A stretch of 64,000 nucleotides of DNA from Polyangiaceae bacterium (GTDB taxonomy: Bacteria > Myxococcota_A > Polyangia > Polyangiales > Polyangiaceae), in the NCBI GenBank assembly GCA_033763455.1, contig JANRKO010000019.1:160001-224000 (forward strand), given 5' to 3'. This document shows positions 9,062 to 64,000 of this stretch, piece after piece (position 1 is the first letter of the stretch; every line of letters begins with the position of its first letter). Below the pieces are notes generated by a model, which was not told where the DNA came from, ran no database searches, and saw only the letters and a program-made list of their open reading frames with translations. The translations under genes were made by a program, and so were the position numbers.

Positions 9062-10174
9062 TCATGCGCCACTCTTGCCGTTGGTGAGAAGCTGCGCCGG
9101 GAGCAGTGATTGGAGCCCGTCGGCCCCAACCACCACCTTCACTTCTTGGATGTGCTGAGCGATCTCTTTCATCGCTTCCAGCTCCTTCAAGCGCAAAAGT
9201 ACCGGGTTTGCCTCCATAACCTTGGCCGTGTTCGCCAACGACCGCGTAGCGGCCGTTTCTTCACGACGTAAGATCACGTTGGCCGCAGCTTCCTTTTCGG
9301 CCTCGATCACGCGATTCAACAGGGCTTTCATTTCACCCGGCAAAACCACGTCTTTGACACCCACATGTTCGATCTTGACTCCCAGCGCCGTGGTGCATGC
9401 CGTAACCCGTCGCTCCATGAAGCGTGTCATTTCGTCACGCCCTTCGAGCAATTGATCGAGGGTTACCCCGGCCACGTATTCACGCGCGGCAAGCTGGGCT
9501 GCCGTGTAGACAGAATCCCGTAGGTTCTGCACCTTGGTTGCAACCACCACCGGATCAGAAACAGCGTATTCGGCCGTTAACGTCAAACGCAACGTCACCT
9601 TATCTCGCGTCATCAATTCCTGACCAGCAATGGTTACTTCCTGGCGCCGCATATCCACGACGCCAATCTCGGCCTTGGCTCCAGGGTGCGTCCACAACTT
9701 GTATCGGCCCGGCGGCAACACAGAAACGAAGCGCCCCTGCTCGTAACGCAAGCCCATTTGGTAGGCCAATACCGTTACGTCAATGTACTCATTGGACGGA
9801 ATCAACCGCTCCAACTCTGCCGACATTTCCGGCAAAGGCTGAGTAACATCGAACACCGAAAGCTGCACAGAAGCATCTACGGTCCAATAACGGTGCACCC
9901 CCGGGCGCAAAAATGCCACCGGCACACCATCTTTGAACAGGACACCTCGTTCACCAGAACCAATCACAACCTCACGAAACCAAGCAGAAGGCAGTTTTGC
10001 CCGGACTTCCGGCAGGGCTGAAAACAGCAAAACACTGGTATCGAACCGTTGCTCAGTGAGCCGCAACGACCAAACCCGATAACGGCCCGGGCCAAGTGCA
10101 GCTACAGGTAAGCCGTCCTTGAAAAGAACCACTCGTTCGTTTAACTTCACACGAATCAATTTTGACCACAACAT
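9062..10174 (-). CDS. Slipin family SPFH/band-7 protein
   Basis: Three LxPGxY/H N-terminal repeats, GQELMTRDKVTLR, VKDVVLPGEMK, RREETAATRSLANTA; SD GAGG upstream. Confidence 0.92.
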   Translation of the reverse strand: MLWSKLIRVKLNERVVLFKDGLPVAALGPGRYRVWSLRLTEQRFDTSVLLFSALPEVRAKLPSAWFREVVIGSGERGVLFKDGVPVAFLRPGVHRYWTVDASVQLSVFDVTQPLPEMSAELERLIPSNEYIDVTVLAYQMGLRYEQGRFVSVLPPGRYKLWTHPGAKAEIGVVDMRRQEVTIAGQELMTRDKVTLRLTLTAEYAVSDPVVVATKVQNLRDSVYTAAQLAAREYVAGVTLDQLLEGRDEMTRFMERRVTACTTALGVKIEHVGVKDVVLPGEMKALLNRVIEAEKEAAANVILRREETAATRSLANTAKVMEANPVLLRLKELEAMKEIAQHIQEVKVVVGADGLQSLLPAQLLTNGKSGA

Positions 10175-10653
10175 GGGTCACCTCTTGGGTTGATGGACTC
10201 CCACCTTCGGCGTGAGCACCATGCCCGCGCCTTTGGAGATCGTCGATTGCTGGTATTTGCCGATACCGTCGGCTTTCGGCGAGCCCGCCTTTGGCCCTAG
10301 TAGTAGGGAGAACGGGACTCGGAAGATGTGCGGGGGCTCTGCAGACTGCTTGAGCCCGAAATTAGTGGCTCCAGAGGTTCAAAGCCCGGCGCCTAGGTTG
10401 AAGCGCAGTGTGAAGCCGCCGTAGCGGCCTCCGAAACGCTTCTCGCTTGAGCGTCTTGGGTCCGATGATTTGCGCGAAATCACTGCGATCTCACCCGGTT
10501 GCAGTCAGCGGGCGCCGAGGCGATGGCCGAAGCTTGCGAGCGAAATGTACGTGAGTTTGGGCAAAACTCGGGTCCGTTCGCCTTCCCCCAATGGCTGCGG
10601 AAGGGCTTTGAAAACCTCTGGAAACCTGGTGTGAATGCCTTTTTAAGGCCAGG

Positions 10654-10722
10654 CCCTTTGCTCTACCCGATGAGCTACAACTCCGTGAGGAGAAGATCGG
10701 ATTCGAACCGACTACCGAAGGG
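10654..10722 (-). ncRNA. Circularly permuted tRNA-like module (YrlA-type topology)
   Basis: CCCTT-CGGTA-GTCGG TTCGAAT CCGAT-CTTCTCC-TCAC-GGAGTTG-TA-GCTC ATCGGGTA GAGC-A-AAGGG: T-arm precedes D-arm and the acceptor-like stem is closed by a 4-nt loop. Confidence 0.72.
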
Positions 10723-10866
10723 TTCTGCCGTGACAGGGCAGTGTCATCCATGACAAGCATGCTTCCGGGACACAACTACCGGACATCCATCGGTGACTCA
10801 CGAGGAGACCAATGCACGCAGTGTTGCGCCGTTTTGAAGCAAGCTTCGCGGGATTCGAACCCGCGG

Positions 10867-10940
10867 CACACAAGGCAAGATTCGAACTTGCACTCTACTG
10901 ATATAGAATCAGCGGCCTCTACCTTTTGGGCTACATGTGT
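10867..10940 (-). tRNA. Atypical tRNA-like gene with CUA (amber) anticodon
   Basis: ACACATG TA GCCC AAAAGGTAGA GGC C GCTGA TTCTATA TCAGT AGAGT GCAAG TTCGAAT CTTGC CTTGTGT G: full cloverleaf, one U-U acceptor mismatch, U at 37, followed by CCG rather than CCA. Confidence 0.75.
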
Positions 10941-10993
10941 TAATTGGTTGCATACGGTTGGTCCTCTTGCTTTGAATATCGAGCCGGGAAATG

Positions 10994-11026
10994 AAAAAAG
11001 CCGCCGAGGTAACCCTGGGCGGCTTC
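10994..11026 (-). terminator. Intrinsic terminator / attenuator hairpin
   Basis: AAGCCGCC...GGCGGCTT stem running into a T6 tract; lies between the leader ORF and the tRNA-like array. Confidence 0.8.
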
Positions 11027-11050
11027 ACACAGAAACACTGCGTAAACGCC

Positions 11051-11179
11051 CTAGGGGGAGCCCCGAAAATCGCGAAAATTGCCGACTAAGCTGCGCTCGC
11101 GGCGTGCACCACAGACGAAAGCCATGCCAAGATTTGGCAGCTGTTGTGCTGTGATGGTGAAACGGTGGAAGTGCTTCAT
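11051..11179 (-). CDS. Putative leader peptide (42 aa; not in the ORF track)
   Basis: MKHFHRFTITAQQLPNLGMAFVCGARRERSLVGNFRDFRGSP-TAG; starts 11 nt after a -10-like box and ends about 25 nt before the terminator. Confidence 0.55.
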   Translation of the reverse strand: MKHFHRFTITAQQLPNLGMAFVCGARRERSLVGNFRDFRGSP

Positions 11180-11190
11180 GAGGAGGCCGC

Positions 11191-11218
11191 AGAGTACGGA
11201 TCTAGAAAAACAAGTCAA
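11191..11218 (-). promoter_or_regulatory. Sigma70-like promoter
   Basis: TTGACT-N16-TACTCT with an A-tract further upstream. Confidence 0.55.
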
Positions 11219-11304
11219 CACAATATCGCTCAGGCGTGTTTTTTTTACGAGGTGACGTTGCTCGCGATCCTCATTTCAAAGCTCCACCATGCAACACAGA
11301 GTCC

Positions 11305-11997
11305 CTAGAGGCGAGCCGTCCAGACGCGTTCAGCGCTGCCGGGGCGAGTCACGAACAAGCGCAGTGTTACCGGAGCCCGTTCACCCATGAGATAAAGCAC
11401 GCGGATTTTGTGCTCCCCGGGAGCCAGCGGGATGCTGCCCATCGCATTATGAGCCTTCCTGCTGTCGTCGTTGTTCACGACTTGGCGGCCATTAATCCAC
11501 AGGATGGCGGCGCCCTGGGTCTTTAACCGAAACTTATAGTTGCCAGCCGCCGAAACGGAGAATCTGCCAGTGTAGTTAATGGCAAACCAGTCGTAGCGCT
11601 CGGCGATTCCTGGGAAACCCGAAAAGTAGCGCTGAGCTACGTCCAAGCTATCCACGAACAAGCGACCTTGCGGGATGCACCGTTCAAGGCGCAGCAAAGA
11701 CACTGTGTTAGGCTTAACAAAGCACACTGTACCCGCGAGCGCTGCTTTGCGGCTGTGGCCAAACAAGGTGCTCCCCGACACCACAGGTACGCGACCACCT
11801 TTGTGACTCGCCCAACGCTCGCCCATGCCAGCGGGCGTGCCGCCTTGCTCGACACCGTACCCGTCCATTCTGTTGCGGCTAGCAGTTCGGATCCGTTCCC
11901 CCAACGACTGACCATGGGCCGCGCCAGCTAAGCTCAGCACTCCAAGTGCCACGCGACTCCCCCACTTCCACAACGTCCCGATCACCATGCGTTTCAC
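11305..11997 (-). CDS. Secreted PA14-domain protein
   Basis: Signal peptide; WFAINYTGRF..AGNYKFRL....GAILWING..VVNND and LAPGEHKIRVLY fit the PA14 pattern. Confidence 0.75.
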   Translation of the reverse strand: MKRMVIGTLWKWGSRVALGVLSLAGAAHGQSLGERIRTASRNRMDGYGVEQGGTPAGMGERWASHKGGRVPVVSGSTLFGHSRKAALAGTVCFVKPNTVSLLRLERCIPQGRLFVDSLDVAQRYFSGFPGIAERYDWFAINYTGRFSVSAAGNYKFRLKTQGAAILWINGRQVVNNDDSRKAHNAMGSIPLAPGEHKIRVLYLMGERAPVTLRLFVTRPGSAERVWTARL

Positions 11998-14529: not shown

Positions 14530-15549
14530 ATGCTGCTGTTCATCAAACACCTCACCGAACTCACGTATTCGGAGCCCATCACCGAAACGGTGATGGAAGT
14601 TCGCATGACTCCGCGAAACGATGCCCACCAAGTGCGGCGCGCGTTTCGCCTGGAGGTGGGGCCCAGCGCCACACCTTTCGAACACACAGATTGGCTCGGT
14701 AACCGCGTGCAGCAGTTCTCCATTTTGCCCCCGCACGATAAAGTCGTGATCTTGGCTCGGAGCGTGGTGGATACGCAGCCAAGGCACTCAGTGCTCGCAG
14801 ATGTGAATCGCGGGTCAGTGCCTCCGCTCGACCATCGAATCGGCGACTATTTGCGCTTCACCGGGCCGGTTGTGGACGTTCACAACCTCGACCGTTTGAT
14901 TCAAAATTTGGGGCTCGGGGCACCGGCGTCGCCTGAAGTTATTCTGCAACGAGTCGCGTCAAACCTGCGCGATCACGTGGAGTACCGTAAAGGCGTTACC
15001 ACGAGCGCCACGGCGATCGACAAGGTGCTCGAGCAGCGCGCTGGTGTGTGCCAGGATCTGGCTCACGTGGCCATTGGGATCTTGCGCAAGCTCGGCGTAC
15101 CAGCTCGCTACGTGTCGGGGTATTTCTATCGCGCGGATGGAAACAGCGAGATGGAGAGCCATGCTTGGTGCGAGGCGCACTTCCAGGGCACAGGTTGGCT
15201 CCCGATAGATCCCACCCACAAAACACTGGCGGGCGAAGGGCACGTTGCTATCGCGAGCGGTCGCGATTTCTCTGACGTTTCACCCAATCGCGGCGTCTAT
15301 CGCGGCAAGGGTGAAGAGAGCCTGCGCGTAAGAGTCACCGTGCAAGAGGTGCAAGAGGTACCCGAAGGCTTATTTGCCGTAGGCTCACCCGAAGTCGAGG
15401 TGCAGCCAATTGGAGGAGGCATGCTTCCCACCCACCGCGAAGCTCTCGAATACCAGCAAGAACAGCAGCAACAGCAGCAACAGCAGCAACAAGTACAGCA
15501 GCAACAGCAGCAACAAGTACAGCAACACCAATATTCGGCTGTGCACTGA
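14530..15549 (+). CDS. Transglutaminase-like protein with poly-Gln tail
   Basis: GVCQDLAH, ARYVSGY, SHAWCE, DPT, GRDFSDVSP. Confidence 0.92.
   Translation: MLLFIKHLTELTYSEPITETVMEVRMTPRNDAHQVRRAFRLEVGPSATPFEHTDWLGNRVQQFSILPPHDKVVILARSVVDTQPRHSVLADVNRGSVPPLDHRIGDYLRFTGPVVDVHNLDRLIQNLGLGAPASPEVILQRVASNLRDHVEYRKGVTTSATAIDKVLEQRAGVCQDLAHVAIGILRKLGVPARYVSGYFYRADGNSEMESHAWCEAHFQGTGWLPIDPTHKTLAGEGHVAIASGRDFSDVSPNRGVYRGKGEESLRVRVTVQEVQEVPEGLFAVGSPEVEVQPIGGGMLPTHREALEYQQEQQQQQQQQQQVQQQQQQQVQQHQYSAVH
15454..15531 (+). repeat. CAG/CAA trinucleotide tract encoding a polyQ tail
   Basis: Encodes QQEQQQQQQQQQQVQQQQQQQVQQHQ. Confidence 0.9.
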
Positions 15550-53693: not shown

Positions 53694-56600
53694 TCAGACG
53701 GTTTCGAGCTGAGCCAAGAATTCCTGGGCACCTGCAAGATCGGGGTTTTCGGTGAGGGCTTTGGCGACCAGAACCTTCGCGCGCCTGGGATCGCCCTGCC
53801 GCTGGGCCAATACAGCAAGGTGAAAGTGTGCTTCTCCCTTAACGACCTGGGAAACGCCCTCTTCCTCTTCGGTGCCGGTGCGCATCATGGCTACGGTCCG
53901 GAACGCTCGCGTGGCCAGTTCGTCGTCGTGGTGATCCAATGCCAGAAGGCCTAATTCCATGGCGATTTCGTAGTTCTTGAGGTCCATCTCAAACGCTTGC
54001 GTCATGGCGCTTAAGGCTTCTCTTGGTTCTTCCTGCAAAAGCAAAATGCGCGCGCGTTCGCGATGGACATTGGCGAGAACCTTGGCGCGACGACCACGGT
54101 AGCTTTCGATCAAGGTCGTGAGCACGTTATCAGCCGCCACCAGATCGCCGCCTACTGCGTGTGCTCGCGCCAACAGCACCAGCCCGGGCACGCTCTCTGG
54201 ACTCAACTCCTGCGCTTCCTTTAAGACCGAAAGCGCGCGCCCAAGATCCCCTTCTGGCTCCAAGAGATGTTCCACCGCCCGGTACATCAGGTTCAGTCGA
54301 GTGGATACGTCAGCGGCAGAAGCAGCATCGCGCAGCAGAAGTTCGCCCAATTCAGCGTGCGCATGAGTTTCTGCGTACACGCGGTAGAGGTTTTCCCTAA
54401 GGAGTTCATTATTTGGTGCGGCAGCACACGCGCGCTCAAGTGCACCCCGTGCATCTTCAATGCGCCCGGCTTTCTTGCACACCTGAGCAAGCCTCAGGGC
54501 CGTTTGTGTGAGGGCTTCGCCCTCTTCCAGCGTTACTAACTTGCGATAGGCAGCCCCCGCCTGGACGAAGTTACCGGCCTCCTCTTCGAGCTCCGCGAGC
54601 TTACGGAGAGCACCTTTGTCTTTGGGAGATTCTTTCACCAATTCAGCTAGCCAAAGGCCCGCCGTTTCACGCTCACCGCGCGCCAATAGTAGATCGATCC
54701 AACGCAAGAGCAGCGCCGGACGGGTCTCAGCGGTTGCTCGCCCTACAGCGAGCTCTAAAGTTGAGGCGAGCTCATCGCCGTAGGTGCCCGTGAGAGCATT
54801 GGCCCGATCCAAGTCATCGAGCGCATCCAGGTCGCGAGACATCGAACGCAAGATGTTAGCGCGCAGCACCAACCATTCGGACCGCTGTGGGGAAGCTGAG
54901 ATCAGCGGTTCGAGTAGGTTGAGCGCTGCTTCGGGCTGGCCGGCGGCCTGGTAGGCGTCCACGAGTTGGTGAAGGAGGGCTTCGTCGTCGGGGCGTTCTT
55001 GGAACGCACGACCGAGCACTCGGACCATCGCGGAGGCGTTTCCGCGGCGGCGATGGGACTCCACGAGATCGGCGAGGATACGCGAACTCATGGGGCAGGC
55101 TTCGAACCCAAGCTCTAAAGCCTCCAGCGCTAGCTCATCTTCTCCGCGTTCAATTCGCAGCGTATGCAGCTGTTCGCACAAAGCTTCCGCTCTGGGTCCC
55201 CGCTCACTCTTCAACAAGCCCTCTAATGCCTCAGCCATTAACCCAGTATTGCCGTGTGTAGTCGAGAGCCGAAGCACAGCGCCAAGGGCCGGTGCGCTGC
55301 TCTTGTCGAAGTCCAACACGGTTTGGTAAGCGAGCAGGGCATCGGTCGGACGTGCTTGACGCTCTAAGAGGTCCCCGAGACGCATAGATAGTGATAGAAT
55401 TGAGGTTAGGTGCGCGCGCCGCTTGGCGCCTTCGAGTTGGAGGTTCAGAAGCTCGGTGAGCTCGTCCAAGCGCCCTAGCTTCTCCAGCACTTTGGAGAGC
55501 AGGAGCGCCGCGTCCACTTGGCGCGAATCTTCGGACAACACTTGCTTGAGGCCAGCGATGGCTTCTTCTTCGCGCCCAGGCTCGGAAAGCAGTACATTCG
55601 CCTCCTCAAGCCTCAACCGAGCGCGATCTTCTTGGGTTGTTGCCAAAGGTATCGTAGCCGAAAGCAAGGTCACAAGCTTCTCGGTGTTGCCGAGCGTTCG
55701 GTAGGCCGAAAGTAGAGGTTCCCAAACCTCCCTATCTTGAGGATTGGCTTGGCGAAGGATCTCATAGTTTCGCACAGCGCGCTCAAGATCATTGGCGGCT
55801 ACCGCGGCTTCGGCAACGGCTCGACGGAGCTTCGGCGCACGCTCCGCGTCTTGAAAAGGGATGGCCTTCTCGCGCAACACGAGCGCTTCGTGGGTACGCC
55901 CCGAGGCCTCGCAGATCTTCGCCAATCGCAACATGGCAAACCCGACAAATTCTGGCTTTAGCACGCGCGTATCAACGCTGAGCGCGGTCCTTAGGATGGC
56001 TTCGGCTTGTGCGGCATCATTACACTGAATAGCGAGCTTGTAGGCCTCGCGGGCGGCCTCTTCGTTCTCCGGTTCGAAGCGCACGATGGTGTGAAGTGCC
56101 GCAAGGCGAGTTGGCGGGTCATTGAGAGTTTTGGTGAGGCGCTCAATGATGCGAGCCGAGCCGAGATCGGTCGCCCCAAGGTTATGCGTTCTCTTAAGGA
56201 TCTCGATGGCACGAACAGGGTCAAAGGTGAGGCTCAGCGCCTTCTCAAGCAACTCAAGCCCGCTTGGAACAGAGCCTTTTTCACTGAGCTTCAACTCGGC
56301 TAGGCGGTAGAAAGGCTCTGCATCCAAAGCCACCTCGCCCGATGCCAAAGCGGCCCGCACTCTGCGTTCCAGGATCCTCGATTCCGCGTCCGAATCTCCG
56401 AATGCCTCAAACGCTCGACCTAGGGCTGACCAAGCGCCAAAATCATTCGGCGTGTTGCGTTCTAGCTGCTCCTGAAGCGTTAACGCGCGGCGAGTAAGCT
56501 CCGGCAAAGCCGCTTCAAGTTGCCCAGGCGTTTCTCGCAGCAGTTCAGCGAGCTGTGCAAGGGCCGTAATGGCATCCAGAGGAGAGTTCGAGCGTTCCAA

Positions 56601-59600
56601 GGTTGAGCGGAGCGCCCGCACTAGTAGTTGGCGCTGACCTCGTTGTTGAAGCGCCCTTTCAAGAGCTTTGGCCTCGCGCGGATCTTCGGCGGCGGCCTCG
56701 AACGCTGATTCAACGAACTCCTGAGCGCGTGTGGCATCTTCCCTTTGTTCGGCGATAGCAGCTAGATCGAGCAAGCTTTCCACGCGTGTTGGGCTATTGG
56801 GCCCTGTTTCTCTCCCAATGATGAGCAAGAGCCCGCGGTATTGGCGCTCGGCGCGCTCAAGCTGCCCTTCTTCAAATGCCAATCGAGCGAGCGCGTACAG
56901 AACTTCTGGGTGTGCCGGGTCGATCTTAGAGGCCTTATCGAGCTCCCCGAGCGCCTCTGCGCGTTGCCCCCGAGCGAGGCTCACTTTGGCGAGCTGATAG
57001 TGCACCAATGCGCGTTCTTTGGGCCGCCGCGCTCCGTAGCGTTCAATTTGCTCCCGCAGCACTTCCATGGCTGCATCGAAACGCTCCGCGCGCAAGAGCG
57101 CATCCGAAAGCGACAACCGAAGCCTGTAGTCATCAGGCTCTAGCGCCAATGCCTGCTCAAGCAGCGGTACGGCTTCACCCGGTCGCTGGCGTTCTTCGAC
57201 GTGCAAGCGGGCAGCCTCCGTGAGGCACTGCAAGCGAACCGCTGGCTTTTCTGCGCGTTCAGCCTCCTCCGAAAGGAGCACTGCCAACCGATCCCAGTCT
57301 TTGTCTTCGCGATAAAGCTCTGCGAGCCGAGTCCGAACCTCGCCCGCATCGATGGCTCGACTTCCCGCCTGCTCAAGGCGTGCGCGTGCGTCACGCCGCC
57401 GATTGCATGAGACGTAAGCGTTGGCCAGCGCGAGCGCCCGCCCCGCGAGAGTTTCCCTCGGCGACTGGGCACAGAGCCACTCCAACACCTGTGCCGCTTG
57501 AGCGTGCTCTCCCTGTTGGGTGTAGATCCGTGAAAGTGCCACGAGGCTACTTTCACCCCCGAGCGCAGCCCCTCGCCGATAGTTGGCGATGGCGCGGTCA
57601 ACGTCTGTAAGCTTGTGTTCGGCCAGTTCGCCGGCGCGCGCCCAGAGCAAGGCAGCTCCAGCGCGATCGAGAACGCGCTCCTTGCACTCGGCTTGCTGCT
57701 CCCAGAGGCTGGTAACCTCCGTGTCCAAACCTTGCGCAGCAAGCAAGGCTGCCAACCTGGAAACCGAGGCGGCAGCCACCTCGTCCGCCGGATCCTCGGC
57801 GAAAAGCTCCCGGAGAAGCTGAGTGGCGGCCTTGGGGTCGGAAAGCCTGTCTGAATACAAACACGCCGCCTCCTGCTTGAGTTGGCGCTTGCGGCTTGCC
57901 AAAAACGGTAACTTCGATCCCCGAAGTAGAAGGTCCACAACGTACGTGTGATTACCCTCCTCAAGACCTCGCTCGCGCAGTTCTTCGATCGCTCGGTCTA
58001 CGGTCCGTGCCGGGGCACTTTGAGCGTCGCCCTCTTCTAGGGTCCATGCCGACATCGCCAACTGCATCAGCTTCTCAAGAAGCGTTCGCGTAAGCTCTCT
58101 ATCGGCTCGACTCGCACCGGCAACCTCACGTGCCGTTTGCCAATCGTGGCCTTGCACAAAGGCTTCAATCGCGCGTTCTGGCTCCAACGTACGCTCATTG
58201 TGGATAGCGCCAAGGTGGCGATAGAGCTCTGCTTTTCGCGACGCCTCAGCTTCCCCTTCGGCTTCGCTGCGCACCAGCTCCGCAAGGTCTCGGTATTGAC
58301 CCTGGGCGGACAAGAGGGCGTGCAAAGCTCTGTAGTTCTCAGCGTCGCGGCCATGATCAGCACGCACCCTTCGCCAGGTGGCAATGGCACTAGCTGCGTC
58401 ATCACACTTCTCGGCGTAAATCCGAGCCACCCAAATGGCGTCTCGCTTGGCCGCCGCGGCGCTCTCCGGAGCCAGAATTCTTGCGCCCAAGGCTTCGATG
58501 AGCTCTCGGTGCCTCGGAGTCGCCGCAAGTGCTTCCACCAAACCATCTTGCGCCACTCGATCTTTGGGACCGAGCGCCAAACGCCGTCTCCAGTTATCTA
58601 CTGCCCGATCTGGATCCGAAAGCACATCCATCGCCAGACGTGCCGCCACACCGAGCGCTGCCACCTTGCGATCTGCCTCCACTTCCAACGCCGCAAGCTT
58701 CTCCAGAACCATACAACGTTCTTCGAAACGGCCCTCCGCCTCCAACATCGCATCCAGCTCTCTAGCCGCAAGGAGTGCAGCTTTCGGCTCAGCCTCCGCC
58801 TGTGCCAACACTTCGAAGTACAGCTCAATCGCTAGCGGCCGTTGCCCCAATTTTTCGTAGGCACACCGCGCCGCCATAGAAAGGTGCACCACAGCTAGCG
58901 CGTGGTCCGTTTCTCTTCGCCCGACCTCGACATGAACGCTCACCTGGGCTTCAAAAGAACCCAAACGTTCCGCAAGCTTGGCAAAAAGTGCCCGTAGCTC
59001 TGCGTCTTCGGGACACTTCCGTACGAGCTCAGCAACGTTCTCGAAAGCCCCCTGAGCGTCATCCAGACGCTCAAGGCGCACCTCGACGAGGCGCCTTAGG
59101 CGCTGAACACGCAGGGGGATCGACTCCGCTGTGTCCACAAGAACTTCGAGCATTTCCACTACGCGCTGATCTTGCTTCTGCGCATCGTAATGGGTCGAAA
59201 GAAGCTCGGCGCAGCGCTCTTTTACAGCGCGAGGGTCGGCCGGAGCATCTTTATCCGTTCCGCTCGAAACACCGGTAGCGGCACCAGTGCCTCCAGGTGC
59301 GGCGGGAGACAAGCCAACGAGGCGCTCAAGGAGCGCATAGGCTTCGGGCTCGTTGGCGTCGGCCTCGATGATCTTCCGAATATATGCAAATGCCGGAAGG
59401 GGTTCGCCGAGATCCATGAACAAGCTGGCGATGCGAGCTCTCAGAATCTGAGCGAGTGCGGGGTCGGCAACTTCGAGGCGGTGCTCACAGAGGGCAATGA
59501 GTGGCCGCTGTTGATTATTTCTTTCATACAGGCGCTCCAACGCGAGTTCGACGCGGGCATCGCGAGGAATGAGCTCGTTCAACAATTCAAAGTAATAAAT

Positions 59601-62600
59601 GGCGCGCTCCGCGTTACCCGCGAAATCCTTGGCTGCCATTGCCGCCTCGCGCAGCACCTCGGCACTTTCCTCGGTGGATTTTGCAGCGTTGAGCGCCCAA
59701 TCATAAAGTTGGAATAGATCTTCCCAACGCCCACTTGAATTGAACACCAACTTCAAGCGATCGGAGGCCCAGACCGCACTCGGGCACAGCTCAAGCACCC
59801 TTCGCAAAAGCGCAATGACTCGCTCTGCGTCGTCGAACCACTCCTCGTAGAAGTTAACAATACGTTCGCCCAAGCTTTCCGCGACTTCAGGCAATAGGTC
59901 GCCGGCGATAGTTGCGGCGTAGGCCTCGGCTAATGGCCCGGGATCATGCAGCTTCTGAGCGCAGTGCTCCGCTGCTTCCCAAAGCTCAGTGTCAACCTTG
60001 GCGTCCTTGGCAGCAGCCAGCGAAAGCTCGTAGAGCTTCGGATCGTCGTCAGGGCGAAGCTCAATAATCTTCTTAATCCAACGCTTGCGCGCATCTCGGA
60101 GCTCCCCCATTCCCTCGCTCATACTAAGCAGCACTCCGAGGACCTCGCAGTGGGTGGCGTCGTCTTCCGAACTTTCAGCGACGTGTTCGAGAAGCTCTGC
60201 CGCCGCGACCTGGCTGTCGCGAAAAGTGAGTGCCTTGTGCACAATCCGTAACGCTTCGGGGTGTTTGGGCTGAGCTTGGAGAATGGGCCCCACGAGCTCG
60301 AGCGCTGATTCGGGCTTGCGGAGCTGATCCATCAAAATTGCGGCCATCTCCAACTCGAGAGTTACGCGTTGCTCACCATCTGTGCGCAGGCGCAGCTTTT
60401 CAAGGCTGCTCAATGCACCCTTGAAATCGCCTTGTTCCACCTTGAGGGCCGCTAGGTGCTGGAGGGCATCTACCCGCTCCGGGTCGATACCAAGCACACG
60501 TTGGTAAAGTTCCATTGCGCGGTTAGGCTCACCAAACCGCTCTTGCTCGGTATCCGCCCAGTCGAGCAGGATCCCCACGGGTTCGCTCGCACGCTCCGCA
60601 CGCCATTCATACAACCAGCGTTGATCCTCGGCAGCGTGCGGAGTTCCCGATTGCTCCAGAAACTGCTGAAAAGCTTCAACATCGGCGGGAGTGCCATCGG
60701 TTTCAAGCAACTCACGGTAGAGCGCGGCGGCCTCCTCCGCTCGCTCCGGATCGCTGGCAAGCGCGCGAGCTTTTGCTGAAAGCAGCTGGTGGTGCTGCCC
60801 TGGCTCAAGGTCACCCTTCAGGGCCGAATCCACCAACTGAACGAAGGTTGTGAGCGCCCCCGCTTGAACCAGGCGGGCTTCCAACCCGAGCAAGATAGGA
60901 AGCCAATCCCGCACCGTACATGCTGCCAAAAGGGCCGTAAGCGCTGCGGGGAGCTTTTCGTGGGAGCCGCTCTTCGCGTAGAGGTCAATCAGGCGTTCGG
61001 CGGCCGAACGTTGCTTGGGCGCAATATTCAAGACGTGTTCGTACATGCGCCGCGCACGCCCAGTGTCAGCGGCTAGCCCTTCACAGAGCTCAGCACCGCG
61101 CATCCAAGCCTCGACAGCCGCACGCACGTCGAGGAGCTTTTCCGCGAGCACCTGCCCTAGGCGTTCTAAGATGTCCGCTTGTGTCGAGGCATCCGCCGTG
61201 CCGTGCAGCCTCTGTTCAAGCGCACCGCGAACGAGGTCCGGGCGGCCGTATTCACGTGCTAGCTCCTCTATGCGCTCCAACACTTCGTCGCCGACATCGG
61301 ACGTTTCCATCAGTCGTTGGTAGTGTTCGAGAGCCTTGCCGGGGAACTTCTGGAGCTCAGCCACACGCGCCAGACGGAGCAGCGTCTTGTGTTTTCGTTC
61401 CGCCGTTACGTGTGGCAGAAGCGCTTCCAACTGATCGTAGACGAGCTCCAGTTCATCCGCTTCCGAGTAGAGCTCAATCAAGGCTTGGTGTGCGGCAATA
61501 TCCGCGTCGTCCTCGGCCAACGCGCGTTGCCAGGTAAGAATGGCGGCTGCTTGATTGCCGAGCTCCCGGTGCTCAAGCGTCGCAATTGAATGCAAGAGCT
61601 CCTTCCGCCGTCCTGGCTCTTGCTCCTGTTCAAGTGCGGTGCTGTAGAGCGCCATTCGATCGCTTGGATTGCCCTGGGAGACCAATAAACGATCGATCCG
61701 CTCCAACAGATCTCGAGAAGCGGGTGCGAACTCCAGAGCTCGTCGATACACCTCAACGGCCGCATCTAGCTCCGAAGCGTTCGCGAGCGCCTCACCGGTC
61801 AGACGACAAAGTTCCAACATGTCGTCGCTCTGAACCGCGTGCTTCCCGAGAGCGTGGCTCAGCACCTGCGCCTTGGCCGCAGCCGAACCAACCACGTCCG
61901 CCAAACGCGTGACGCGCTCTAGCCAGGAGGGGATCCCCTGCCCCATTTCGACAGCCAGGTTGAGGCCTTGCCCTGCCAAATCTAGTGCGCGGTCGGGATC
62001 TCCAAGGTCCCTTTGCGCGAGGGTCATGGCCTCGTACAAGGCTTCAAAGCGAGCATGAAGATCCGCTTCGAGCTTGCCTCGGACACTGAGCACTTTTACT
62101 AGGCCAGCCGCCGCCGCTTCCGAACGGTAAATAGGCTCCAAAATATCGGCTGCCGCAAGCTCAGCGCCTTCGGTGAATAGCAGCCGTTCCAACAGCACGC
62201 GCGAAGCGCGGTGAGCGGAATCAATAGACAAGGCTGCGCCAAGTGCGGCCAAGGCGCCACGCACATCTTCCAGACGCGCATGCTTCACCTGGGCCAAGCG
62301 CGATAAATAATCTGGCTTCTGCTCGTCATCTACGCAGGAAATCAATTGTTCGAGCGTCTGGGCCAAGCGGGGCCACTCTTGCAGCTGTTCGAGCAACGGC
62401 ACCATGCGTTCCAAAACGGGCTGACGCGGACCATATTTGGAGAGCACCTGGGACCAGACTTCCAGCGCGACGCTCTGATCGTGCTGGTGCTGGGTTCGAA
62501 GCTCCGCCGCTGCAAACGCGAGGTCTCTGGCCTTCTCAGGGTCTAAGGAACGTTCCGCCCTAAACGCGAGAACATCTGCTTGGCCTTCTTTAGAATCAAT

Positions 62601-64000
62601 GCGCGCGTAAATCTCCTCCAGGCGCCCCAAAGCCTCATCTGTCCACTCCGAGCCCAGCAGAGCTCTCCATGCACCGAGCGAGCGCTCTGCGGCTACATTT
62701 TCGCCATCGTAGAGGCGGGTGAGCCGACGGGCAGCCGTCTGGCGCACTGTCTGATCTGGCTCCAGCTTAACAACAAGTTCAAGCGCAGCTCCCAGGCCTT
62801 TGGTGTCGCCGGCTTCACCGCAAAGTTCGACCAAATGGCGCGATGCCGCCAAAATGGCCTCTTCACCCTGACCACCCTCAATTACCTGCTGAAACGTGCC
62901 TTGTGCGCGCCGACTGTCCCCCGTCTTGAGGTAGAGCTTGCCAACGTCCACTCCGATGCGCGCCCGCACACCGGGCTCACGCGTAGTCTGAAGCGCCCTC
63001 GCCAGGAGCAATGCCGCCTCCTTGGGCTGATCTAGCTCTAAGCTCAAAGCCACATAACGTTGCCGAAGCTCGTCATCGCCCGGGCCCGCCGATACTACCG
63101 GGGCTAACAGCTCCAACGCGCCGCCCTTATCGCCTAAGGTATCTTGCCTAAGGATCGCCAGACGCCGCTGAACATCCAAACGGCGAGAACCTTTTACAAG
63201 CTTGAGCTCCATGGTGAGCATGGCGATCGCACTCGTAGTATCCCCTGCACTCTCGTACGCGTCTGAGAGTGCGGCGGCCGCTCGCTGCGCTACTGAGCGA
63301 TTCTCAAGCAACGCTTCGGTCACCGTAATTGCCGCGTGGTGCGTCGGATCCGAGCGCAACAAAGCCTCCAAGTGGGCGATGGCCTCCTTAGGCTCTTTGA
63401 CCTGGTGGATGTACAAATCCACCAGCCGTTCGTGGATACTCCGAATATCGGCGTCAGAAGGTGGTGGTTGTGATAGCAGCTTTTCCTCAAGCAGCTTGGC
63501 CGCGTCGCGGAAACGAGCTGCCACTATCAATCGCTCAATCAGCTCTTCCTTAGCGCGGTCGCTGTCGGGCTCCACTTGCACCCACGCGTGCAAGATCTTG
63601 AGCGCTAAGTCATGCGCCAAGGGTCGGTCGACCACTAGCGAAGCAGCTCGCTTGAGTAACGGGATCTTGTTGGCGTCGTCTTTTTCGGCTCGGCTCGCTT
63701 CGAAATACAGGAGCGCCAATTCCTCAGTTTTTTCAGCTTCGCCGAGCAGACGCTCCAACAACTGAAAGGCTTCCGGATGCCCTGGAATGGCAGCAAGTGC
63801 GAGCTCTGCATAGCGCGTGGCACCGGGAAGGTCTCCGAACATGTCGCCAACAAACGCAGCCGCACGCAGGAAGAGGTAAGCGCGCTGTTCAGCAGCAAGG
63901 ATCTTGATACGGCGATCGGAAGCGAGGCGCTCGTAGGCTAACGCAAGATCCGCTGCCTTGTCCTCGCGGAGAGTAGCCTGGTGCAAGCGCTCCCAGACCT
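53694..64000 (-). CDS. Giant TPR-repeat protein (>3430 aa, 5' end outside the window)
   Basis: Uninterrupted ORF that is still open at the window edge; many helical TPR-like repeats (A...Y..AL..DP); resembles myxobacterial AgmK-type proteins. Confidence 0.85.
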   Translation of the reverse strand, partial: VWERLHQATLREDKAADLALAYERLASDRRIKILAAEQRAYLFLRAAAFVGDMFGDLPGATRYAELALAAIPGHPEAFQLLERLLGEAEKTEELALLYFEASRAEKDDANKIPLLKRAASLVVDRPLAHDLALKILHAWVQVEPDSDRAKEELIERLIVAARFRDAAKLLEEKLLSQPPPSDADIRSIHERLVDLYIHQVKEPKEAIAHLEALLRSDPTHHAAITVTEALLENRSVAQRAAAALSDAYESAGDTTSAIAMLTMELKLVKGSRRLDVQRRLAILRQDTLGDKGGALELLAPVVSAGPGDDELRQRYVALSLELDQPKEAALLLARALQTTREPGVRARIGVDVGKLYLKTGDSRRAQGTFQQVIEGGQGEEAILAASRHLVELCGEAGDTKGLGAALELVVKLEPDQTVRQTAARRLTRLYDGENVAAERSLGAWRALLGSEWTDEALGRLEEIYARIDSKEGQADVLAFRAERSLDPEKARDLAFAAAELRTQHQHDQSVALEVWSQVLSKYGPRQPVLERMVPLLEQLQEWPRLAQTLEQLISCVDDEQKPDYLSRLAQVKHARLEDVRGALAALGAALSIDSAHRASRVLLERLLFTEGAELAAADILEPIYRSEAAAAGLVKVLSVRGKLEADLHARFEALYEAMTLAQRDLGDPDRALDLAGQGLNLAVEMGQGIPSWLERVTRLADVVGSAAAKAQVLSHALGKHAVQSDDMLELCRLTGEALANASELDAAVEVYRRALEFAPASRDLLERIDRLLVSQGNPSDRMALYSTALEQEQEPGRRKELLHSIATLEHRELGNQAAAILTWQRALAEDDADIAAHQALIELYSEADELELVYDQLEALLPHVTAERKHKTLLRLARVAELQKFPGKALEHYQRLMETSDVGDEVLERIEELAREYGRPDLVRGALEQRLHGTADASTQADILERLGQVLAEKLLDVRAAVEAWMRGAELCEGLAADTGRARRMYEHVLNIAPKQRSAAERLIDLYAKSGSHEKLPAALTALLAACTVRDWLPILLGLEARLVQAGALTTFVQLVDSALKGDLEPGQHHQLLSAKARALASDPERAEEAAALYRELLETDGTPADVEAFQQFLEQSGTPHAAEDQRWLYEWRAERASEPVGILLDWADTEQERFGEPNRAMELYQRVLGIDPERVDALQHLAALKVEQGDFKGALSSLEKLRLRTDGEQRVTLELEMAAILMDQLRKPESALELVGPILQAQPKHPEALRIVHKALTFRDSQVAAAELLEHVAESSEDDATHCEVLGVLLSMSEGMGELRDARKRWIKKIIELRPDDDPKLYELSLAAAKDAKVDTELWEAAEHCAQKLHDPGPLAEAYAATIAGDLLPEVAESLGERIVNFYEEWFDDAERVIALLRRVLELCPSAVWASDRLKLVFNSSGRWEDLFQLYDWALNAAKSTEESAEVLREAAMAAKDFAGNAERAIYYFELLNELIPRDARVELALERLYERNNQQRPLIALCEHRLEVADPALAQILRARIASLFMDLGEPLPAFAYIRKIIEADANEPEAYALLERLVGLSPAAPGGTGAATGVSSGTDKDAPADPRAVKERCAELLSTHYDAQKQDQRVVEMLEVLVDTAESIPLRVQRLRRLVEVRLERLDDAQGAFENVAELVRKCPEDAELRALFAKLAERLGSFEAQVSVHVEVGRRETDHALAVVHLSMAARCAYEKLGQRPLAIELYFEVLAQAEAEPKAALLAARELDAMLEAEGRFEERCMVLEKLAALEVEADRKVAALGVAARLAMDVLSDPDRAVDNWRRRLALGPKDRVAQDGLVEALAATPRHRELIEALGARILAPESAAAAKRDAIWVARIYAEKCDDAASAIATWRRVRADHGRDAENYRALHALLSAQGQYRDLAELVRSEAEGEAEASRKAELYRHLGAIHNERTLEPERAIEAFVQGHDWQTAREVAGASRADRELTRTLLEKLMQLAMSAWTLEEGDAQSAPARTVDRAIEELRERGLEEGNHTYVVDLLLRGSKLPFLASRKRQLKQEAACLYSDRLSDPKAATQLLRELFAEDPADEVAAASVSRLAALLAAQGLDTEVTSLWEQQAECKERVLDRAGAALLWARAGELAEHKLTDVDRAIANYRRGAALGGESSLVALSRIYTQQGEHAQAAQVLEWLCAQSPRETLAGRALALANAYVSCNRRRDARARLEQAGSRAIDAGEVRTRLAELYREDKDWDRLAVLLSEEAERAEKPAVRLQCLTEAARLHVEERQRPGEAVPLLEQALALEPDDYRLRLSLSDALLRAERFDAAMEVLREQIERYGARRPKERALVHYQLAKVSLARGQRAEALGELDKASKIDPAHPEVLYALARLAFEEGQLERAERQYRGLLLIIGRETGPNSPTRVESLLDLAAIAEQREDATRAQEFVESAFEAAAEDPREAKALERALQQRGQRQLLVRALRSTLERSNSPLDAITALAQLAELLRETPGQLEAALPELTRRALTLQEQLERNTPNDFGAWSALGRAFEAFGDSDAESRILERRVRAALASGEVALDAEPFYRLAELKLSEKGSVPSGLELLEKALSLTFDPVRAIEILKRTHNLGATDLGSARIIERLTKTLNDPPTRLAALHTIVRFEPENEEAAREAYKLAIQCNDAAQAEAILRTALSVDTRVLKPEFVGFAMLRLAKICEASGRTHEALVLREKAIPFQDAERAPKLRRAVAEAAVAANDLERAVRNYEILRQANPQDREVWEPLLSAYRTLGNTEKLVTLLSATIPLATTQEDRARLRLEEANVLLSEPGREEEAIAGLKQVLSEDSRQVDAALLLSKVLEKLGRLDELTELLNLQLEGAKRRAHLTSILSLSMRLGDLLERQARPTDALLAYQTVLDFDKSSAPALGAVLRLSTTHGNTGLMAEALEGLLKSERGPRAEALCEQLHTLRIERGEDELALEALELGFEACPMSSRILADLVESHRRRGNASAMVRVLGRAFQERPDDEALLHQLVDAYQAAGQPEAALNLLEPLISASPQRSEWLVLRANILRSMSRDLDALDDLDRANALTGTYGDELASTLELAVGRATAETRPALLLRWIDLLLARGERETAGLWLAELVKESPKDKGALRKLAELEEEAGNFVQAGAAYRKLVTLEEGEALTQTALRLAQVCKKAGRIEDARGALERACAAAPNNELLRENLYRVYAETHAHAELGELLLRDAASAADVSTRLNLMYRAVEHLLEPEGDLGRALSVLKEAQELSPESVPGLVLLARAHAVGGDLVAADNVLTTLIESYRGRRAKVLANVHRERARILLLQEEPREALSAMTQAFEMDLKNYEIAMELGLLALDHHDDELATRAFRTVAMMRTGTEEEEGVSQVVKGEAHFHLAVLAQRQGDPRRAKVLVAKALTENPDLAGAQEFLAQLETV

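Follow-up and report, generated by a model that had tools for sequence, protein, structure and literature searches.

A probable leader-peptide attenuator with a built-in UAG stop at the head of bacterial tRNA arrays

Attenuators of amino-acid operons are built from a short leader open reading frame (ORF), a terminator and an antiterminator that shares the 5′ arm of the terminator, and the place of the ribosome near the end of the ORF decides the outcome. At the trpL and ivbL attenuators of Escherichia coli, increased ribosome occupancy of the leader stop codons raises termination, as reported in part of PMC5373646. Long tRNA arrays (L-arrays) are described in part of another study (PMC8421152) as supernumerary, horizontally spread and present in several phyla including Planctomycetes, with an HNH gene upstream and rtcB nearby; the same part describes the L-array of Anabaena as silent until translation is impaired and ascribes its control to promoter repeats. 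Here we describe a locus on the minus strand of a 64,000-nucleotide stretch of DNA from a Polyangiaceae bacterium (assembly GCA_033763455.1, contig JANRKO010000019.1, positions 160,001 to 224,000), referred to below as the window, in which a leader ORF ending in TAG is followed by a terminator-like hairpin, a tRNA-like gene with the anticodon CUA, a tRNA-like non-coding RNA and an SPFH/Band-7 gene. In our assessment, the leader and its hairpin form, with a probability of roughly 0.6, the conserved 5′ control unit of an L-array and act as a leader-peptide transcription attenuator.

In terms of architecture, the unit shares with the trpL, hisL, ivbL and pheL attenuators a leader ORF, an intrinsic terminator and a competing antiterminator that uses the 5′ arm of the terminator. 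Unlike attenuators of the trpL type, it shows no run of codons for one amino acid in any of the listed leaders and no detectable 1:2 "protector" helix, its stop codon, nearly always UAG, is built into the antiterminator strand, and it would control tRNA genes together with a tRNA-like RNA and an SPFH gene instead of biosynthetic enzymes. A leader ORF that senses impaired translation, and not one amino acid, is the common ground with bmrB-bmrCD of Bacillus subtilis (described in part of PMC4191407) and toiL-topAI of E. coli (described in part of PMC12121999); the genes, taxa and sequences of those systems are different, and the present leader heads tRNA arrays and is known from sequence alone. 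With the trn operon of Anabaena sp. PCC 7120 and other L-arrays, to the extent that part of PMC8421152 covers them, the related loci share same-strand arrays of up to 25 tRNA genes that are extra to the dispersed housekeeping set. By eye, HNH genes precede loci L027 and L028, and the end of an RtcB-like gene precedes L010. That paper uses none of the words attenuat-, leader and terminator, and the window differs from its arrays in having just the head, one tRNA-like gene and the tail. Leader-peptide attenuation itself is textbook control; our searches of open-access PMC and bioRxiv found no paper on its use for tRNA arrays.

The leader unit of the window comprises the following parts.

11191..11218, minus strand: putative promoter read by eye, with TTGACT (11218-11213), a gap of 16 nucleotides and TACTCT (11196-11191).
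11051..11179, minus strand: leader ORF of 42 codons plus TAG (11053-11051), from the ATG at 11179-11177 to the ending F-R-G-S-P-stop.
11047..11056, minus strand: region 2, the 5′ strand of the antiterminator predicted by folding (CCCU-A-GGGCG), which holds the TAG stop and pairs with 11021-11013.
11024..11046, minus strand: small hairpin predicted by folding in the centre of the unit, past the stop and ahead of the terminator; the alignment has a hairpin at the same place in most related units.
10994..11026, minus strand: intrinsic terminator, called from folding (-20.7 kcal/mol), with a stem at 11026-10997 and six T (10999-10994), three of which lie within the stem.
10940..11050, minus strand: 36 in-frame sense codons past the TAG, up to the TAA at 10942-10940; a chance open frame and not a feature.

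As a literal description, the sequence-only reading of this stretch holds: a leader ORF ends in RGSP-TAG, a hairpin comes next, and the same frame stays open for 36 more codons up to a TAA that overlaps base 1 of the tRNA(CUA). The ATG lies 11 nucleotides past the second promoter-like hexamer, so that the 5′ untranslated region is very short or absent, and the leader is without a Shine-Dalgarno sequence. TTGAC[AT] boxes stand at similar places ahead of the leader ORFs in L008, L016, L018, L026 and L030.

Units of this kind were found 20 times, in 15 genomes from six families of the same order. A hairpin scan of upstream regions yielded the first 11 (nine genomes), each of which has a TTGAC[AT] box, a short ORF starting at the first ATG after the box (by eye) and a stop, TAG in ten and TGA in one, 20-35 nucleotides before a GC-rich hairpin that often carries a T-run. 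Nine further full units were taken from a search of 401 genomes of the order with a two-arm pattern lacking TA; this search was noisy, with 131 genomes matched and a reversed control matching at about the same rate, and a match was kept only if it showed the whole hairpin architecture. TA precedes GGGCGGT in eight of the nine, and the ninth has TAA one base earlier. Over all 20 units the stop is TAG in 18, TAA in one (L079) and TGA in one (L036), and T, A and G of the stop are invariant columns in an alignment of 17 rows; by comparison, TAG ends 1250 of the 4315 stop-to-stop frames of at least 250 codons in this genome (~29%). The generic hairpin type occurs six times in the 6.56 Mb genome and the fuller motif once.

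Most of the units stand ahead of long arrays of 13-25 tRNA genes on their own strand, which extend to a tRNA-like RNA and the same SPFH gene. Same-strand tRNA genes were counted behind seven of the units: 25 in L072, 19 in L073, 21 in L074, 17 in L076, 19 in L077, 10 in L079 and 13 in L080, with none of 132 tRNAs behind these units on the opposite strand. The first gene of the array is tRNA-Tyr in L072, L073, L076, L077, L079, L080 and also L018, and tRNA-Lys in L074. In three genomes (G092, G113 and G026) the array spans 3.6-6.5 kb and leads, without a change of contig or strand, to an SPFH gene; at least 67 tRNA matches, mostly dispersed, were counted in G092. A DNA search with positions 10180-11310 in 40 relatives (three of the same genus) gave no match, nor did blastn against phages and plasmids, and Rfam searched over the region at E up to 10 gave no match for the leader. 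Two loci (L026, 341-720; L030, 236-616) carry two leader-TAG-hairpin units in tandem, with both ORFs in the same frame, followed by a tRNA-like gene with a GTGCGAATC T loop that was missed by ARAGORN.

The bases at the stop copy the 3′ arm of the terminator (TAGGGCGGT, TAGGCGGT, TAGGACGGT and TAGCGGTCG; TAGGGCG here) and can therefore pair with its 5′ arm as an antiterminator. These bases, GGGCG in the window and GGGCGGU in many relatives, run from the G of UAG onward. When the RNA of the window is cut before the 3′ arm of the terminator, its predicted folding energy is -26.8 kcal/mol, compared with -18.4 ± 2.9 kcal/mol for shuffled sequences, and nine pairs join the stop window to the 5′ arm of the terminator; the fold of the leader RNA has a z-score of -3.2. 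With the 3′ arm left out, the 15 nucleotides from the stop onward make at least five pairs with the 5′ arm in 17 of the 20 units, and in 8 of the 11 that were found without the pattern. In 18 of the 20 units the fold is better than those of 95% of the shuffled sequences.

Both helices were further examined in an alignment of 17 units, from which L026b, L030b and L036 were left out owing to their poor fit. The terminator helix is 92.7% paired across the family, with compensatory change at 5 of 12 pairs and a covariation score reached by 0 of 500 shuffles. The antiterminator helix is 90.9% paired, with compensatory change at 4 of 8 pairs, whereas slid controls give 34-55%. The G of TAG makes the first antiterminator pair (G-C in 16 of 17 rows); the other two bases of the stop, U and A, take no part in the predicted helix. 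The attenuator-like leader proposed by the sequence-only reading is supported, with the stop codon at the foot of an alternative antiterminator helix.

Translation of the ORF is suggested by its frame. Over the 51 codons before the stop in 19 units (L019, which is cut by the locus end, was left out of the count), frame 0 holds one stop in total, as opposed to 25 and 34 in the other two frames, and 18 of the 19 units are free of any stop in frame 0, as opposed to 3 and 2 in the others. Indels among L073-L076 (9 nucleotides; 8+4 nucleotides) preserve the frame, and substitutions are spread evenly over the three codon positions in the four closest units; given these two observations, the pattern fits, as expected, that of a translated leader whose peptide sequence is unimportant. 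The leader peptide has no relatives in 5.8 billion protein clusters apart from its own 42-residue entry, and its codon-usage score is ambiguous. Leader endings include E-D-P-x, E-G-P-x, E-G-F-A, D-F-A, G-A-T, S-S-S and others; Pro stands within the last three residues in 9 of 20 units, and a loose acidic-[DG]-[PF]-x pattern recurs. No conserved nascent-peptide arrest motif of the RAPP or RAGP kind stands at the C-terminus: RGSP is not shared, and the endings vary among units. The sequence-only reading had named conservation of the RG.P-TAG ending and its spacing as a test; the TAG (18 of 20 units) and the distance of 20-35 nucleotides to the terminator stem (11 units measured) are conserved, and the RG.P ending is not kept.

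The frame of the ORF, its stop, both helices and the position at the heads of arrays are conserved; that the ORF is translated, which way the switch works and what signal it answers are what we infer in the following scheme. The promoter would drive a short, nearly leaderless ORF whose peptide is free to vary while its frame is kept open and its end kept at UAG. The proposed masking of the antiterminator strand by a ribosome at the ORF's end is based on the footprint of a ribosome. As long as translation keeps up with the polymerase, a ribosome at the stop would cover region 2, the terminator would form and transcription would end before the tRNAs. When ribosomes lag owing to tRNA shortage or damage, antibiotics or other translational stress, region 2 would be left free for the antiterminator, and the polymerase would go on to transcribe the tRNA genes, the tRNA-like RNA and the SPFH gene. 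The C-terminus, often acidic-Gly/Asp-Pro/Phe, and a stop read only by release factor 1 (RF1) may prolong the stay of the ribosome on the stop codon.

Several points weigh against this attenuator. The units were picked partly by eye and are related to each other, so that the counts overstate their independence. Three of 14 examined hairpins were set aside, two directly after a long HNH gene (L027 and L028) and one a repeat (L015). The pattern behind nine of the 20 units (9 of the 17 aligned rows) itself demands both arms, and their pairing is not independent evidence; the structure used for the alignment came, moreover, from a single row. The switch is poorly fitted by L026b, L030b and L036, the last of which has TGA and no antiterminator that could be found, and no "region 1" that would hold the switch off in the absence of translation was found. 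A consensus promoter and terminator scan flagged neither element here, and both the promoter and the start of transcription are putative. In L016, L018, L019 and L032 another strong promoter-like box stands past the terminator of the unit and ahead of the tRNAs, and the unit therefore need not be the sole control of the tRNAs. Searches by nhmmer with the leader of this window or with the leader-like stretch of L008 linked no other locus, and the homology of the window's unit accordingly rests on architecture and short shared motifs; direct homology of the leader with L008 was dropped, its MAFFT column identity being 68% against 66% with unrelated DNA. No read-derived contig from four runs falls on the leader or the tRNA(CUA), which is uninformative either way.

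Beyond the terminator, the minus strand of the window carries the following.

10865..10940, minus strand: tRNA-like gene with the anticodon CUA (ARAGORN and Rfam, 50.3 bits), in the slot of the first tRNA of intact arrays.
10847..10865, minus strand: T-arm-like hairpin right after the tRNA(CUA), read by eye.
10656..10720, minus strand: part of a conserved non-coding RNA that resembles a permuted tRNA, with T arm, capped acceptor-like hairpin and D arm in this order; called from a partial Rfam YrlA match.
9062..10174, minus strand: SPFH/Band-7 gene, assigned by family and locus comparison; in relatives the end of the tRNA array contains it.

The tRNA(CUA) starts 53 nucleotides past the T-run of the terminator. 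The label "Pyl" that it receives from ARAGORN is given to any tRNA with a CUA anticodon. A pyrrolysine tRNA (tRNA-Pyl) has no GG in the D loop, no T-psi-C sequence and a short variable loop. Here GG is present in the D loop and the T loop reads GTTCGAATC, features that do not fit a tRNA-Pyl despite the anticodon, and this identity was rejected. In the anticodon loop, UUCUAUA, position 37 is a pyrimidine (U) and U32 could pair with A38, and the stems contain the mismatches U6-U67 and C13-A22 (Rfam alignment, by eye). A working amber suppressor needs an intact cloverleaf with U33 and a purine at position 37; with U37 and two mismatches, this candidate was rejected as well. The avoidance of TAG that is expected of an amber-suppressing genome is not seen, TAG being about 29% of long-ORF stops. 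The best matches are short array tRNAs with Leu anticodons (71% and 68% identity, D and T arms shared), which have G37 and A73 where the tRNA(CUA) has U37 and G73.

In related loci, none of the 187 tRNAs called by ARAGORN (55 + 132) has a CUA anticodon, and the conserved TAG is therefore not there for an amber-reading tRNA. CTA and TTA tRNAs are described as absent from array units in part of Tran et al. 2016 (PMC4758250). No close relative of the tRNA(CUA) was found in 40 related genomes, in phages, in plasmids or in two collection scans with a degenerate pattern. The scan of genome contigs for CUA tRNAs of the same shape returned three loci, a different tRNA(CUA) in L003 and two tRNA-Arg(UCU), and the metagenome scan returned one chance match that is not a tRNA. 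Most likely, to judge from these comparisons, the tRNA(CUA) is a degenerate remnant and no working suppressor; it is probably a decayed array tRNA of the short "Leu-type". The other 45 tRNAs of the genome are dispersed and form no array, and a run of about 20 or more packed same-strand tRNAs, the mark of an L-array, is present neither in this window nor in this genome and does occur in relatives. Probably the locus is a relic in which the array has shrunk to one odd tRNA, the tRNA-like RNA and the SPFH gene and in which the leader unit is intact.

Some side observations concern these tRNAs. The tRNA(CUA) of L003 (positions 1-70; CAYUWY010000031.1, a Pirellulaceae metagenome-assembled genome, or MAG) looks canonical, with the anticodon loop TTCTAAA and A37; it lies at the contig start with its 5′ end cut off, and for that reason is not called by ARAGORN, and a TatD-type hydrolase-like gene follows (by eye). 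L004 and L005, two contigs of "Bacteroidetes" MAGs, are AT-rich and carry tRNA-Asp, tRNA-Arg(UCU) and membrane-protein frames that seemingly read TGA as sense; they look organellar rather than bacterial and may have entered those MAGs by contamination. In the assembly of the present genome (G000), which is 93.7% complete, ARAGORN calls no tRNA-Trp(CCA) and no tRNA-Lys(CUU). A Thr-Gly-Tyr-Thr tRNA cluster stands there on a 4.3 kb contig, and because of this cluster the two gaps are probably assembly breaks. Among the arrays, L072-L080, L025 and L029 hold tRNAs of 75-78 nucleotides with Leu anticodons (AAG, CAG, CAA, UAA, UAG) and without the long variable arm expected of bacterial tRNA-Leu, and many other array tRNAs have odd D arms.

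The open frame that follows the TAG was compared with chance and with the other units. Of the in-frame gaps that follow a TAG in the genome's intergenic-like DNA, 27% are at least 36 codons long (P = 0.27), which bears out the caveat, already part of the sequence-only reading, that 36 open codons may arise by chance. An in-frame extension of at least 25 codons is present in 16 of 20 units, and the two remaining frames reach that length in 15 and 14 units. In four units a stop comes 3-7 codons past the TAG, and the overlap of TAA with base 1 of the tRNA has no counterpart in the other units. The 36-codon extension and the TAA on base 1 of the tRNA are coincidences. Since the post-stop frame 0 is hardly more open than the others and four units stop early, readthrough translation is not a conserved feature, and the readthrough frame that had been drawn across the terminator does not recur in related units.

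The nearly constant TAG invites two other readings of the unit. An unlikely one is that the switch gauges RF1, reading the dwell of the ribosome on UAG and not the speed of elongation, so that the array would respond to RF1 activity or to drugs or damage that hit termination. The frequency of TAG in the units relative to long ORFs of this genome agrees with such a sensor, and the stop U and A are unpaired in the predicted antiterminator, so that pairing does not explain their conservation. Synonymous variation in the C-terminal E-[DG]-[PF] codons (GAG/GAA, CCC/CCG, TTT/TTC) hints that the last residues matter, and stop-codon occupancy alters attenuation in E. coli, as part of PMC5373646 reports. 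However, the G of TAG as the first pair of the helix is by itself enough to favour TAG over TAA and TGA, L079 has TAA and L036 has TGA in its place, the residues at the C-terminus differ widely, and slower termination would keep the array off, a poor fit with induction by stress. The preference for TAG can thus be read in two ways, as structural, with the G starting a GC-rich helix, or as functional, with termination by RF1 only and an often acidic-[DG]-[PF]-x ending together setting the dwell time; TAG is not obligatory, as L079 and L036 illustrate. Very improbable, in turn, is the positive feedback raised in the sequence-only reading, in which the tRNA(CUA) would suppress the UAG of the leader and ribosomes would melt the terminator, raising the tRNA's own transcription. 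In this one genome a CUA tRNA gene does lie just past a TAG-gated terminator, with a frame open across the hairpin; however, the TAG and the switch are kept in 19 other units and their loci offer no tRNA(CUA), the post-stop frame is not conserved and its openness here is at chance level, the tRNA itself looks degenerate by its position 37, its possible 32-38 pair and its two stem mismatches, and TAG is a common stop in the genome. The absence of relatives of this tRNA from both collection scans, the L003 gene being a different tRNA(CUA), and the absence of CTA and TTA tRNAs from array units in the cited part of PMC4758250 point the same way. Were the unit a gauge of dwell time on UAG and had its surviving tRNA gained a CUA anticodon that reads its own gating codon, a self-referential loop would result, a little suppressor altering the next round of its own synthesis; we hold this to be about as remote as the feedback.

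Two further readings would detach the unit from the tRNAs. It might be a small gene or small RNA that stands by itself, ends at a terminator of its own and is a mere neighbour of the tRNA locus, which we regard as rather improbable. A stop 20-35 nucleotides before an intrinsic terminator is what a normal gene end looks like, the leader RNA folds well by its z-score, and several relatives have a promoter-like box past the terminator; however, the peptide is not conserved, which makes a protein function unlikely, the strand next to the stop is complementary to the 5′ arm of the terminator with compensatory changes, an arrangement sensible only for conditional termination, and the unit stands on the same strand at array heads in six families. 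Alternatively, the ORF might be a chance frame in the 3′ untranslated region of the upstream gene, which encodes a PA14-domain protein, and the hairpin, 277 nucleotides past the stop of that gene, its terminator. The ambiguous coding score and the lack of a Shine-Dalgarno sequence are in line with this, but the same architecture stands behind unrelated upstream genes with its frame kept open, and the count of stops by frame largely refutes it, leaving it barely credible. The leader-peptide attenuator remains the reading that we prefer.

The conserved non-coding RNA (10656-10864, minus strand; also in L008, L009, L010, L027, L028 and L034), which lies past the tRNA array and ahead of the SPFH gene, has a lone T-arm hairpin and a linker with recurring GTCCG. 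Next comes a circularly permuted tRNA-like cloverleaf of T arm, capped acceptor stem and D arm, and an anticodon-arm-like hairpin stands after it. By nhmmer, the stretch 10600-10870 is linked to 11 other loci, and L027 has a tRNA-Ser exactly at the slot of the tRNA(CUA), followed by the same T-arm-like hairpin with compensatory changes. The RNA resembles the YrlA-type Y RNAs (RF02553; PMC4201824) in the order of its T arm, capped acceptor-like stem and D arm; it differs from them in that its match is partial (27.4 bits compared with an Rfam threshold of 69) and in that no Ro60/TROVE gene is present here. L008, L009 and L010 each show a partial YrlA-like match of this kind upstream of their SPFH gene. 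No TROVE/Ro60 gene was found in the genome, which is 93.7% complete, and five relatives gave two weak partial matches, none convincing. A bacterial Y RNA would be expected to score above the Rfam threshold and to have a Ro60 (TROVE) gene within 4 kb; with that score and no TROVE match, membership was rejected. Contigs from RNA libraries of two studies cover 10653/10689-10851, a weak hint that the tRNA-like RNA is expressed, and DNA contigs cover only 10201-10664; all ten differences in one of the RNA-library contigs fall in the linker.

Orthologues of the SPFH gene are present in 43 of 301 genomes of the order and were not found in the same-genus genomes that were searched. Same-strand tRNA genes of many kinds lie upstream of it in 16 of 30 other loci, and in many genomes of the order (L008-L037) long tRNA arrays enclose it or end with it, further tRNA genes often following. 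In L033, what looked like an in-frame TAG of the SPFH gene turned out to be its normal stop. Elsewhere in the window, positions 14530-15549 (plus strand) encode a transglutaminase-like protein with a long glutamine-rich tail (runs of Q), and a giant ORF of at least 3430 codons at 53694-63986 (minus strand) runs off the window end.

The "Pyl" tRNA of this locus is no evidence of pyrrolysine or of a changed genetic code and is probably debris of a lost array. Anabaena is the one studied case of L-array induction, and repeats in the promoter are what has been linked to the sensing there. If the attenuator is real, it would be a sensor free of protein, in which the speed of the ribosome decides whether spare tRNAs get made, and it would extend leader-peptide attenuation from amino-acid synthesis to tRNA supply. 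A UAG built into the antiterminator is an unusual design, one that could reveal the speed of termination in use as a signal.

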